The position numbers were made by a program, and so were the translations under genes. The notes beneath the pieces were generated by a model that did no database searches, was not told the origin of the DNA, and saw only the letters and a program-made list of their open reading frames with translations. Source: Escherichia coli (GTDB lineage: Bacteria > Pseudomonadota > Gammaproteobacteria > Enterobacterales > Enterobacteriaceae). Taken from it: DNA of 64,000 nt. The stretch lies in assembly GCF_044324785.1 (NCBI RefSeq), contig NZ_CP172127.1; one strand, given 5' to 3'. Position 1 is the stretch's first letter; each line of letters opens with the position of its first letter. This document shows, in pieces, positions 9,758 through 13,339 of the stretch.

Positions 9758-11167
9758 ATGACAAGTATTCAACAACGAGCAGAACTGCACCGCCAGATAT
9801 GGCAAATTGCCAATGATGTCAGAGGTTCTGTTGACGGATGGGATTTTAAGCAATACGTTCTGGGCGCGCTTTTCTACCGTTTTATCAGCGAAAATTTTTC
9901 CAGCTATATTGAAGCCGGTGATGACAGTATCTGTTATGCGAAACTGGATGACAGCGTAATTACTGATGACATTAAAGACGATGCCATCAAAACTAAAGGC
10001 TACTTCATCTACCCAAGTCAGCTTTTCTGCAACGTAGCTGCGAAAGCAAATACCAATGACAGACTGAATGCAGATTTAAACAGTATCTTCGTTGCTATCG
10101 AAAGTTCTGCTTACGGTTACCCTTCAGAAGCTGACATCAAAGGTTTGTTTGCTGATTTCGATACCACCAGTAACCGCCTGGGTAACACCGTTAAGGATAA
10201 AAATGCCCGCCTGGCTGCGGTTCTGAAAGGGGTTGAAGGGTTAAAACTTGGTGACTTCAACGAACATCAGATTGACCTGTTCGGCGATGCCTATGAGTTC
10301 CTGATTTCTAACTATGCGGCGAATGCTGGTAAGTCAGGCGGCGAGTTTTTTACACCGCAGCATGTCTCTAAGCTGATTGCACAACTGGCTATGCACGGGC
10401 AGACCCACGTTAACAAAATCTACGACCCAGCCGCAGGTTCCGGTTCGCTGTTGTTACAGGCGAAAAAGCAGTTTGATGACCATATCATCGAAGAAGGCTT
10501 TTTTGGTCAGGAGATCAACCATACGACCTATAACCTGGCGCGTATGAACATGTTTTTGCACAACATCAACTACGACAAGTTTGATATCAAGCTGGGCAAT
10601 ACGCTGACTGAGCCGCACTTCAGAGATGAAAAACCGTTTGATGCCATCGTTTCTAACCCGCCGTATTCAGTGAAATGGATTGGCAGCGATGACCCGACGC
10701 TGATTAACGATGAGCGTTTTGCCCCGGCTGGCGTCCTGGCCCCCAAATCAAAAGCTGACTTCGCGTTTGTATTACATGCGCTGAACTATCTTTCGGCCAA
10801 AGGTCGCGCCGCGATTGTCTGCTTCCCGGGTATTTTTTACCGTGGCGGCGCAGAGCAGAAAATCCGTCAGTATCTGGTCGATAATAACTATGTCGAAACC
10901 GTGATTTCACTGGCACCGAACCTGTTCTTTGGCACCACCATTGCCGTAAACATTCTGGTGCTGTCTAAACATAAAACGGATACCAAAGTTCAGTTTATTG
11001 ACGCCAGCGAACTGTTCAAAAAAGAGACTAACAACAATATCCTGACCGATGCCCATATCGAACAGATTATGCAGGTATTTGCCAGCAAGGAAGATGTTGC
11101 TCATCTGGCGAAATCTGTTGCGTTTGAGACTGTTGTCGCGAATGACTATAACGGCTTTGTTGAATAA
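9758..11167 (+). CDS. hsdM: Type I restriction-modification DNA methyltransferase subunit HsdM, 3' end replaced by IS903 inverted repeat (probably truncated; no hsdS/hsdR follow)
   Basis: N6-adenine MTase motifs ([26 protein letters not shown]); last 4 codons and stop (GFVE*) are encoded by the IS903 terminal inverted repeat starting at 11153. Confidence 0.8.
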
Positions 11168-12209
11168 ATCAGATTTCGGGTAAGTCTCCCCCGTAGCGGG
11201 TTGTGTTTTCAGGCAATACGCACGCTTTCAGGCATACCTGCTTTCGTCATTTTGTTCAGCGCTCGTACCAGGGCCATAGCCTCCGCAACCTGACCATCGT
11301 AGTCACGCAGCGTCAGTGAACCCCCGAACAGCTGTTTTACCCGGTACATCGCCGTTTCCGCTATCGAGCGACGGTTGTAATCTGTTGTCCATTTCCACCG
11401 CGCATTACTCCCGGTCATTCGCTGATTAGCCACTGCACGGTTACGGTCTGCATATTCACCGGGCCAGTAACCCGCACCTTTTCGGGGAGGGATAAGCGCG
11501 CTGATTTTCTTACGCCGCAGTTCATCGTGACATAGCCGGGTATCGTAAGCGCCATCGGCGGCGGCTGACCTGATTTTCCGGTGGGTTTGCCGGATTAACC
11601 CGGGGAAGGCCTCTGAGTCCGTAACGTTGTTCAGCGACAGGTCAGCGCAGATGATTTCATGTGTTTTACTGTCAACGGCGAGATGCAGCTTACGCCAGAT
11701 ACGGCGGCGTTCCTGGCCATGCTTTTTGACTTTCCACTCGCCTTCACCGAAGACCTTCAGCCCGGTGGAATCAATTACCAGGTGTGCGATTTCACCCCGG
11801 GTGGGCGTTTTGAAACTGACATTAACCGACTTTGCCCGCCTGCTGACACAGCTGTAATCCGGGCAGCGTAGCGGAACGTTCATCAGAGAAAAAATGGAAT
11901 CAATAAAGCCCTGCGCAGCCCGCAGGGTCAGCCTGAATACGCGTTTAATGACCAGCACAGTAGTGATGGCAAGGTCAGAATAGCGCTGAGGTCTGCCTCG
12001 TGAAGAAGGTGTTGCTGACTCATACCAGGCCTGAATAGCTTCATCATCCAGCCAGAAAGTTATGGAGCCACGGTTGATGAGGGCTTTATTGTAGGTGGGC
12101 CAGTTGGTGATTTTGAACTTTTGCTTTGCCACGGAACGGTCTGCGTTGTCGGGAAGATACGTGATCTGATCCTTCAACTCAGCAAAAGTTCGATTTATTC
12201 AACAAAGCC
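11153..12209 (-). mobile_element. IS903-like insertion sequence (IS5 family), 1057 bp
   Basis: Perfect 18-bp terminal inverted repeats GGCTTTGTTGAATAAATC at 11153-11170 and (reverse complement) 12192-12209; element length 1057 bp; single transposase ORF. The flanking 9-mers GACTATAAC and GTTACCCGC differ, so there is no target-site duplication. Confidence 0.85.
11209..12177 (-). CDS. IS903-type transposase
   Basis: 322-aa product (M)KDQITYLPDNADRSVAKQKFKITNWPTYNKALINRGSITFWLDD... recognised; probable TTG start. Confidence 0.85.
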   Translation of the reverse strand: MKDQITYLPDNADRSVAKQKFKITNWPTYNKALINRGSITFWLDDEAIQAWYESATPSSRGRPQRYSDLAITTVLVIKRVFRLTLRAAQGFIDSIFSLMNVPLRCPDYSCVSRRAKSVNVSFKTPTRGEIAHLVIDSTGLKVFGEGEWKVKKHGQERRRIWRKLHLAVDSKTHEIICADLSLNNVTDSEAFPGLIRQTHRKIRSAAADGAYDTRLCHDELRRKKISALIPPRKGAGYWPGEYADRNRAVANQRMTGSNARWKWTTDYNRRSIAETAMYRVKQLFGGSLTLRDYDGQVAEAMALVRALNKMTKAGMPESVRIA

Positions 12210-13339
12210 GTTACCCGCTCTTCAATCTCATGCAATTGATTATGCAATATCGCATTTTCATCCTTTTGCCCGGCTAATGAGTGGGTAAGCGTCTCAACTT
12301 CTTGCTGTAATGCGGAGCTCCTGGCCTGGAAAAACTCAAGTTCCTTCAGAACCCGATCTTTAAGAGAGAATAGGTACTCTTCAGCTGACAGCGTGGTGAT
12401 CCTATGATGGGCGGCGGCGATAAATTCATCATAAAAATCATCACTCTTTGCATCCAGGGCAACAACAAACTCTTTCACTTGCTGATAAAACGGGTGAAAT
12501 GCCGGACCAGAAATCGTGTTTAAATGCCACTCAAGGAACACGACAACATAGTTTTTATAATCTCTGAGACGGTGTTCCATCATCCCCTGCTGACAGATAA
12601 ACGCTTTAAGCGCCACCAATGCTTCAACAGCACAGCGGTGCGACTCTGCTCGCGTGGCGGATAGGGATTCACTACGGTTGATGGTATGAGAAATTAACGT
12701 TTCATTTAAGACCGAAATTCTGTTCGCCATGAGCATAAATGCGCAGACGAAGAAAAGATCGTTGGTCGTCCTGATTTCCTGAAAGCGAAGCTGATGACTA
12801 GTAATAAATTGACGCCTGAGAAGCTTGTCCCATGGCCACCAGACAAAGGTGCGGAAAAAGTCAGAGGGAATATCCTGGGATGAAAAAAACTTGAGATCAG
12901 GTAACAGCTCCTGGCGCACTGACCACGGCATCGGAGCATAAACCTGCAAGGCGGGATCAAAAGACTGGCTGCGACAGATAACGACATCCGCTTGTATATC
13001 GCTAGCACGTGCGTACATGCGCTCCAACATCATGTTATCGACATAATCGTCGTCATCAAGAAAAATAACGTACTCACCGGTAGCAGCATCCAACCCGATG
13101 TTTCTTGAGCCTCCCCCACCAAGATTTGTCGTGTTGTTAATGACTCTAATTCGTGAATCAGTTTCAGCCAGCGCCGAGACAATCTCTAAGGTATTATCGT
13201 CAGAACAATCGTTGACAATAATGATTTCAATATCATTTAATGTTTGCGACAAAACAGTGCTCAATGTGTCGGAAATATATCCCGCCGCATTGTGCACAGG
13301 GATAATAACGGAAACAGCTATACTCTCTTTTTCAGACAT
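12179..13339 (-). CDS. Family-2 glycosyltransferase with C-terminal coiled-coil region; 3' end fused to IS903 inverted repeat
   Basis: N-terminal GT2 motifs (VSVIIPVHNAAGYISDTLSTVLSQT, DDDD); C-terminal heptad-rich region; last 13 codons (ERVTALLNKSNFC*) are IS903 IR sequence. Confidence 0.65.
   Translation of the reverse strand: MSEKESIAVSVIIPVHNAAGYISDTLSTVLSQTLNDIEIIIVNDCSDDNTLEIVSALAETDSRIRVINNTTNLGGGGSRNIGLDAATGEYVIFLDDDDYVDNMMLERMYARASDIQADVVICRSQSFDPALQVYAPMPWSVRQELLPDLKFFSSQDIPSDFFRTFVWWPWDKLLRRQFITSHQLRFQEIRTTNDLFFVCAFMLMANRISVLNETLISHTINRSESLSATRAESHRCAVEALVALKAFICQQGMMEHRLRDYKNYVVVFLEWHLNTISGPAFHPFYQQVKEFVVALDAKSDDFYDEFIAAAHHRITTLSAEEYLFSLKDRVLKELEFFQARSSALQQEVETLTHSLAGQKDENAILHNQLHEIEERVTALLNKSNFC

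Follow-up and report, generated by a model that had tools for sequence, protein, structure and literature searches.

How does an intact insertion sequence (IS) come to lie between two truncated genes with no target-site duplication? The question is raised by a 64-kb stretch of Escherichia coli DNA (hereafter the window), for which the initial annotation described an IS903-like element separating hsdM from a family-2 glycosyltransferase (GT2) gene. The element was taken to mark one rearrangement that removed the 3′ end of hsdM, presumably together with hsdS and hsdR, and the native 3′ end of the GT2 gene. The results presented below indicate that the locus probably reflects two episodes at an intact, canonical IS903B that borders a Klebsiella-derived rfb cluster on its 3′ side: an old event in kfoC and a recent, lineage-private adjacent deletion.

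A complete IS903B between two truncated genes

The 1,057-bp element on the minus strand (11153–12209) is a complete IS903B (IS5 family, IS903 group). It is bounded by perfect copies of the 18-bp terminal inverted repeat GGCTTTGTTGAATAAATC (left, 11153–11170, plus strand; right, 12192–12209, minus strand), a sequence that is matched twice in the 64-kb window against a chance expectation of 0.13. The intact transposase ORF (11209–12177, minus strand; 322 aa from a TTG start) covers the IS5-family NCBIfam profile NF033579 from end to end (positions 1–289 of 289) with 357 bits, the cut-off being 140; in RefSeq, the length given for the identical transposase sequence is 322 or 307 aa. Length, inverted repeats and a single uninterrupted IS5-family DDE transposase all assign the element to IS903B, and RefSeq-annotated IS903B copies, including that of E. 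coli SMS-3-5, match it at 100% identity, which confirms and refines the initial identification. With the transposase on the minus strand, the 5′-side inverted repeat faces the GT2 gene, where the junction is invariant, and the 3′-side repeat faces hsdM, where the flanking DNA differs among genomes. IS903B is carried by 1,993 of 5,426 complete E. coli genomes, at a median of 2 and a maximum of 47 places per genome; no second copy that could have served as a recombination partner was detected in the 64-kb window.

As originally noticed, both neighbouring ORFs read into the IS and terminate there, and these fusion tails explain what look like two complete ORFs. The EcoR124-type hsdM (9758–11167, plus strand) consists of 465 native codons (9758–11152), of which the last encode DYN, followed by GFVE and a stop codon read from the IS end. 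On the opposite side, the kfoC-like GT2 gene (12179–13339, minus strand) retains 377 native codons (12210–13339) ending in ERVT, followed by ALLNKSNFC and a stop. Alignment with homologues bears out the loss of native sequence on both sides: the window HsdM lacks the last 53 native residues relative to EcoR124 HsdM (PDB 7bst_D, 520 aa), matching positions 1–480 of 515 in the TIGR00497 profile, and the GT2 gene is cut after codon 377 of 434, with 57 of 434 residues absent. Instead of the hsdM, hsdS and hsdR genes of a functional EcoR124-type I restriction-modification (R-M) system, the window contains the truncated hsdM alone, and the remnant is predicted to be inert.

The missing target-site duplication

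The left flank of the IS ends in the 9-mer GACTATAAC (11144–11152, plus strand), at the breakpoint of the deletion described below, whereas the right flank begins with GTTACCCGC (12210–12218, plus strand), which matches uninterrupted Klebsiella-type kfoC. In the latter, the counterpart of GTTACCCGC is found where GCGGGTAAC is directly joined to TGAACAGG (11122–11130 of the Klebsiella-type ugd-rfb-his locus). The two flanking 9-mers are identical at only 2 of 9 positions, and no in-register common k-mer of at least 5 nt is present within 25 nt of either junction. This comparison rules out a cryptic 9-bp duplication as well as shifted IS boundaries. The flanks do extend the inverted repeats by 4 nt (TAAC...GTTA), but we judge this extension to be a chance match because GTTA is invariant in 44 of 44 genomes and none of the other left flanks terminates in TAAC.

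IS903B copies of identical sequence at three other E. coli sites served as a control: they are flanked by perfect 9-bp duplications at exactly the same ends, and the absence of a duplication in the window is therefore real. It reflects the insertion event rather than the element, the assignment of which to IS903B stands. The arrangement is a deletion-type junction; an adjacent deletion would leave no duplication because the two flanking 9-mers would stem from different target sites, and we infer that GACTATAAC was the 9-bp target of the deletion event.

Two junctions of different age

The GT2–IS903B junction is nucleotide-identical in all 44 chromosomal copies of the locus among the 5,426 complete E. 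coli genomes. In other words, all 44 chromosomal kfoC copies end at the same nucleotide, and the gene is intact in three plasmid copies. The 3′ remainder of kfoC, which would form the reciprocal junction, was not found in E. coli chromosomes and is present only in the three plasmids with intact kfoC. By contrast, the hsdM–IS903B junction of the window was found in none of the 5,426 genomes searched and is private to the window. The two junctions are separate events, with the one at the GT2 gene being the older. Accordingly, the GT2 gene did lose its native 3′ end at the IS, as proposed, but not in the event that truncated hsdM.

On its right side, IS903B forms the 3′ boundary of a segment (12210–21021, minus strand) comprising wzm, wzt, wbbM, glf, wbbN, wbbO and the truncated kfoC (kfoC′). 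Both gene order and sequence identity (99.2% over 8,812 bp to the Klebsiella-type ugd-rfb-his locus) identify it as a Klebsiella O2a-type rfb cluster with kfoC truncated. A simple IS903B composite transposon was considered and rejected for this cluster, given that its far boundary (21021) abuts an IS3-family end rather than IS903B.

An 8,985-bp deletion relative to SMS-3-5

The locus belongs to a genomic island at the tRNA-Ser gene serW, between infA and clpA. Compared with the serW island of SMS-3-5, this island shows 99.98% identity: the 11,152 bp to the left of the IS contain 2 mismatches, the IS itself none, and the 20,082 bp to its right 1 mismatch and 1 gap. The only structural difference is an 8,985-bp deletion extending leftward from the IS903B end: positions 27038–36022 of the SMS-3-5 island sequence are missing at the window breakpoint between nt 11152 and 11153. 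The search of related genomes for the pre-deletion arrangement was thus successful, and the deletion-type junction is upheld: SMS-3-5 retains the order hsdM, IS1B, wbbY, wbbZ, an IS256 remnant, ISKpn26, IS3 copies, IS903B and kfoC′. According to the SMS-3-5 annotation, the lost content includes hsdM codons 466–523, IS1B, wbbY, wbbZ and remnants of IS256, ISKpn26 and IS3. WbbZ of the SMS-3-5 segment is confirmed by a match to PDB 6X1L (E = 1e-183), and profile searches detected GT4 and GT2 modules in the adjacent 740-aa protein; WbbY has been described as carrying modules of these two families (PMC10629545). The deletion begins precisely at the IS terminus, leaves the IS in place and creates no duplication, as in IS-mediated adjacent deletions.

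The presumed co-removal of hsdS and hsdR did not hold up. In the SMS-3-5 island, IS1 already occupies the last hsdM codon and neither gene follows downstream, showing that IS1 had displaced both beforehand. Strain CREC-2, which would imply a 296-bp deletion, was also considered as a precursor after a 5.2-kb query scored 100%, but was rejected in view of 104–142 flank mismatches versus 0–2 for SMS-3-5.

Nested endpoints and an inversion from the same IS copy

Including the window, 13 distinct left endpoints occur at the same IS903B end, at least 12 of them in other genomes, although the series was collected by searching with the right junction, an ascertainment that favours leftward events. Relative to SMS-3-5, 305 bp are missing in EC21, 2,114 bp in ET82, 3,732 bp in CUVM53, 4,784 bp in BY63, 4,802 bp in 23CRST042, 7,580 bp in TUM1881, 8,689 bp in CREC-2, 8,985 bp in the window, 9,351 bp in WCHEC050613, 10,007 bp in both W444 and LCP22S3_I2, and 19,111 bp in 162.2; two further endpoints, on the CUVM53 variant, come from F1053 and GDSC2239PM.

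In ET120, this IS copy has given rise to a second, oppositely oriented one, and the segment between the two is inverted; both old junctions are intact. The 9-bp target, AATTGAATG / CATTCAATT (window positions 30692–30700), is found inverted at the two new junctions, a product that is diagnostic of intramolecular replicative transposition. Both the nested endpoints and this sister inversion product are characteristic of adjacent-deletion activity, so that, across natural genomes, a single IS903B copy has left both a series of nested deletions and an inversion.

A proposed two-event scenario and its alternatives

In the scenario that we favour, IS903B would have inserted into kfoC, with loss of the distal part of the gene, before or during the spread of the cluster in E. 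coli, thereby fixing the junction with kfoC′. The recent event would have started from the arrangement kept in SMS-3-5: the resident IS903B would have attacked GACTATAAC, a target located in hsdM 8,985 bp further left on its own molecule, in an intramolecular replicative transposition resolved as a deletion. A circle consisting of the DNA in between and a second IS copy would have been released, leaving the chromosome with a single IS fused directly to hsdM at codon 465. Given the 12 or more other left endpoints and the ET120 inversion, intramolecular replicative transposition is the likeliest mechanism, and we infer that it, and not an insertion with subsequent recombination, produced this deletion, and did so in one step. 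Nevertheless, the deletion could have grown stepwise, with the CREC-2 endpoint located 296 bp away, albeit next to a flank that differs from that of the window at 104 positions over 4.65 kb.

The best surviving alternative, which nonetheless appears unlikely, is that hsdM first received a second IS903B at GACTATAAC, oriented like the resident copy and flanked by a 9-bp duplication, and that RecA-mediated recombination between the two then deleted one copy along with the 9 kb separating them. Its product would be identical to that observed, such that sequence alone cannot tell it apart from a one-step deletion; moreover, IS903B is abundant in E. coli, and recombination between IS copies is a recognized source of missing duplications (PMC11708052). 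However, the predicted intermediate junction is present in no complete genome: no contiguous match was found to hsdM with IS903B simply inserted at GACTATAAC, and a split match in ATCC 98082 is the sole hit reaching 80% coverage. Furthermore, each of at least 13 endpoints would require an independent same-orientation insertion followed by recombination, whereas the inverted target duplication in ET120 demonstrates that this very IS copy performs intramolecular replicative transposition. Far less probable is an assembly artefact, in which two real IS903B copies, a new one in hsdM and the resident one, were collapsed and the intervening 9 kb dropped. Although both junctions lie exactly at IS ends, where short-read assemblies break, the 64-kb window is contiguous through several other repeated IS elements, and comparable deletion junctions occur at this IS end in 10 independently assembled complete genomes. 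Finally, a single IS-mediated event removing the 3′ end of hsdM, hsdS and hsdR, and the 3′ end of the GT2 gene would account for the truncation of both ORFs exactly at the IS ends but is refuted, because the GT2 junction is common to 44 genomes and the hsdM junction to none, and because what follows hsdM in the precursor is IS1B and wbbYZ instead of hsdS/hsdR.

Possible consequences for the island polysaccharide

The loss of wbbY and wbbZ is predicted to turn the island polysaccharide from Klebsiella O1-like to O2a-like. The window strain lacks both genes but carries the O2a-type cluster; therefore, any Klebsiella-like second O antigen that it produces should be O2a-like. Such changes would be relevant to E. 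coli–Klebsiella serological cross-reaction and to O1/O2-directed antibodies or vaccines (PMC10629545).

One might speculate that transcription of the rfb operon running into this IS903B copy makes it unusually active, repeatedly pruning or inverting its downstream flank and acting as a natural switch from O1-like to O2a-like through removal of wbbYZ, but we regard this as rather improbable. The rfb operon and the transposase gene are on the same strand, and the distance from the kfoC′ stop codon to where the long transposase ORF starts is 1 nt; a scan for terminators and promoters between the two yielded nothing above the shuffled background. In the approximately 30 genomes retaining the IS3–IS903B junction, we saw no deletion that reaches into the rfb side.

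Comparison with known systems

The untruncated island copy of HsdM differs from that of the type IC R-M systems EcoR124I/II (PDB 7bst) by 3 substitutions over 517 aligned residues. Unlike in EcoR124I/II, however, the island hsdM is an orphan without hsdS/hsdR, with IS1 at its last codon in the relatives and a further 53 residues missing in the window. The rfb cluster has the same gene order as rfb2a of Klebsiella pneumoniae O1/O2 (wzm-wzt-wbbM-glf-wbbN-wbbO-kfoC), and in SMS-3-5-type islands wbbYZ adjoins rfb2a, as described for E. coli isolates (PMC10629545). Unlike the Klebsiella O1/O2 loci, the cluster has its kfoC interrupted by IS903B at codon 377, has lost wbbY and wbbZ by deletion in the window, and resides in the serW island instead of the ugd–his interval.

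IS903 frequently generates adjacent deletions, which have been linked to its replicative pathway (PMC11708052), and the element forms both adjacent deletions and cointegrates (PMC12670165). The locus described here shares the element traits, the deletion from the exact IS terminus, the retention of the IS and the sister inversion with these cases, without any mechanistic difference. It is a clear natural example of a process already known, not a new mechanism; what is unusual is the number of independent natural endpoints from one fixed copy, together with an inversion by the same copy. A close parallel is provided by IS150 in the E. coli long-term evolution experiment (PMC11708052), where a pre-existing IS likewise anchors deletions without duplication and the endpoints extend over time. 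That case, however, concerns an IS3-family element followed through a time course, whereas the present one involves an element of the IS5 family, IS903 group, in natural isolates.

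The IS903B copy and its ends

The element between hsdM and the family-2 glycosyltransferase (GT2) gene (11153-12209) is exactly 1,057 bp long, 100% identical to RefSeq copies annotated as IS903B and delimited by perfect 18-bp terminal inverted repeats, GGCTTTGTTGAATAAATC, which match the 64-kb window only twice, versus 0.13 matches expected by chance. On the minus strand, a transposase ORF (11209-12177) matches the full length of the IS5-family profile. All defining features are thus present, and the element belongs to IS903B. The flanking 9-mers, GACTATAAC and GTTACCCGC, are identical at 2 of 9 positions, and shifting the boundaries revealed no cryptic repeat. 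Three control copies of IS903B with the identical sequence, from other E. coli genomes, are each flanked at these very ends by a perfect 9-bp duplication, which shows that the lack of one is a real property of the window copy. The length, repeats and differing 9-mers reported in the initial annotation were accordingly confirmed in the sequence, as was the entry of both adjacent ORFs into the element, where they terminate (hsdM as ...DYN followed by GFVE and a stop; GT2 as ...ERVT followed by ALLNKSNFC and a stop).

An old junction in a Klebsiella-type rfb cluster

GT2 is the final gene of a cluster ordered wzm, wzt, wbbM, glf, wbbN, wbbO, GT2, and is 99% identical to a 434-aa homologue across residues 1-377. 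The contig encoding this homologue displays the native Klebsiella arrangement (ugd-wzm-wzt-wbbM-glf-wbbN-wbbO-GT2-acyltransferase-hisI), with GT2 in the kfoC position. Window positions 12210-21021 are 99.2% identical to that contig over 8,812 bp, and the alignment ends exactly at the IS903B boundary, where the contig runs uninterrupted from GCGGGTAAC into TGAACAGG; GT2 therefore lacks 57 native C-terminal residues and has gained 9 IS-encoded ones. A search of 5,426 complete E. coli genomes finds the junction of IS903B with this truncated gene, kfoC' (12209/12210), in 44. Every one of the 44 chromosomal copies of the kfoC stretch stops at the identical nucleotide, whereas three plasmid copies run through without interruption. 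The right junction is thus old: kfoC was truncated before the cluster spread in E. coli chromosomes, and the window shares this truncation with other genomes.

At its far end (21021; region 21015-21460), the Klebsiella-derived segment meets a terminus of the IS3 family (TGAAGTGGTCAACAAAAACTGGCCACC...) and a degenerate DDE transposase, so that the captured cluster is bounded by two different IS rather than by an IS903B pair. At the near end (region 12130-12181), the stop of the kfoC' fusion ORF (12179-12181) and the start of the 322-aa transposase ORF, encoded on the same strand, are 1 nt apart, and a terminator scan between the two genes yielded no convincing candidate. The rfb operon is therefore predicted to be transcribed into the transposase gene; that such read-through makes this IS903B copy a hot spot is speculative.

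A private deletion at hsdM

The single rearrangement originally proposed for both sides of the element is refuted by the distribution of the two junctions: the hsdM-IS903B junction (11152/11153) is present in none of the 5,426 genomes and is recent and private to the window. The window island is located at the tRNA-Ser gene serW, with infA on one side and clpA on the other. Compared to the precursor-type island of E. coli SMS-3-5, it shows 2 mismatches in 11,152 bp left of IS903B, none within IS903B, and 1 mismatch and 1 gap in 20,082 bp to the right. Identity to SMS-3-5 is 99.98-99.99% across the island (1-32259) but only 98.6% in the backbone past clpA (32379-42867; clpA, macAB onward); the island has therefore moved or recombined between lineages.

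The sole structural difference is a segment of 8,985 bp (27038-36022 of the SMS-3-5 locus) missing from the window. It comprises hsdM codons 466-523, IS1B, a gene for a two-module glycosyltransferase of 740 aa, a divergent pyruvyltransferase gene, an IS256 fragment, a frameshifted ISKpn26 and a run of IS3-family copies ending in one that IS903B interrupts. A match to PDB 6X1L (E = 1e-183) identifies the pyruvyltransferase as WbbZ, and its 740-aa neighbour contains GT4 and GT2 modules, as described for WbbY (PMC10629545).

The hsdM gene is of the EcoR124 type: aligned to residues 3-519 of PDB chain 7bst_D (520 aa), the 523-aa island protein shows 3 substitutions. In the window copy, 465 native residues remain and the final 53 are missing; the 3' ends of hsdM and GT2 (57 native residues) were thus indeed lost, but not in one event. 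The accompanying loss of hsdS and hsdR is not supported, since neither gene follows hsdM in SMS-3-5, CREC-2 and related genomes, where an IS1 end falls at the final hsdM codon and the ORF tail is read from IS1. This IS1 end is shared by all less-deleted relatives (11323-11448 in CREC-2; 27208 in SMS-3-5), and the RefSeq 'complete' 523-aa HsdM consequently finishes in IS1-derived residues (...CEVQ followed by VMTPTY and a stop). Hence, the deletion without duplication holds on the hsdM side, but its content was wbbYZ and IS debris, not hsdS/hsdR. In E. coli ATCC 98082 (NZ_CP034659.1, 425346-425828), a fragment of EcoR124-type hsdM has an IS903B end ~360 bp away, perhaps from an independent IS903B event in a different copy of this gene.

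Recurrent endpoints and the likely mechanism

Across genomes, the left end of IS903B has many different neighbours, each joined exactly at the terminus. With each left flank mapped onto SMS-3-5, the sequence absent left of IS903B amounts to 305 bp in EC21, 2,114 bp in ET82, 3,732 bp in CUVM53, 4,784 bp in BY63, 4,802 bp in 23CRST042, 7,580 bp in TUM1881, 8,689 bp in CREC-2, 8,985 bp in the window, 9,351 bp in WCHEC050613, 10,007 bp in W444 and LCP22S3_I2, and 19,111 bp in 162.2. Two further endpoints, in F1053 and GDSC2239PM, lie on the CUVM53 variant. Because the series was collected via the right junction, part of its apparent left-only bias is expected; even so, the counts suggest that few or no genomes have the IS3-IS903B junction without the kfoC'-IS903B one. 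The IS3-IS903B junction of SMS-3-5 is kept in ~30 genomes (31 records matched the junction query, one as a split match). In CUVM53 and ET82, a site-specific integrase and two hypothetical genes lie between IS1A and ISKpn26 (L005, 5589-7277; L023, 1-695); this arrangement, replacing wbbY-wbbZ and the IS256 fragment, is a second ancestral variant left of IS903B.

In ET120, IS903B is present as two identical, mutually inverted copies (23440-24496 and 42988-44044 of the ET120 locus) around an inverted segment spanning DUF3987 to kfoC'. Both old junctions are kept, and the new ones carry the 9-bp target AATTGAATG / CATTCAATT (window 30692-30700), inverted at the two. Inverted IS copies and an inverted target around an inversion are the textbook product of intramolecular replicative transposition, the other outcome of which is an IS-adjacent deletion without target duplication. 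The ET120 inversion is a sister reaction made by the same IS903B copy. Adjacent deletions by IS903 are common and tied to its replicative pathway (PMC11708052), and the element forms both adjacent deletions and cointegrates (PMC12670165).

The window junction is thus likeliest an instance of IS-mediated adjacent deletion, which would have proceeded via intramolecular replicative transposition. Simple insertion of IS903B into hsdM and later recombination of two direct copies would yield the identical sequence, but is rather improbable: the intermediate occurs in no complete genome, and the route would have to recur for every endpoint. Collapse of an IS repeat in the source assembly is far less credible still, given that ten independently assembled complete genomes have analogous junctions.

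Relation to known islands

The history of the locus is hereby corrected from one event to two, with wbbYZ and IS debris as the deleted content, and the island polysaccharide is predicted to have changed from O1-like to O2a-like. The IS903B-rfb unit also occurs in other contexts in 162.2, TUM1881 and 30EVA2, namely, a tRNA-Ser near ghrA, dsdC-IS1, and an EcoR124-type hsdR remnant with IS1A. In E. coli isolates, wbbYZ has been described beside a complete rfb2a cluster, with a chromosomal position that varies and with deletions in some cases (PMC10629545), and the varied contexts agree with the published remark that the position of the locus differs among isolates. Overall, this is the Klebsiella rfb2a/wbbYZ island known from E. 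coli, and nothing in it falls outside known kinds.
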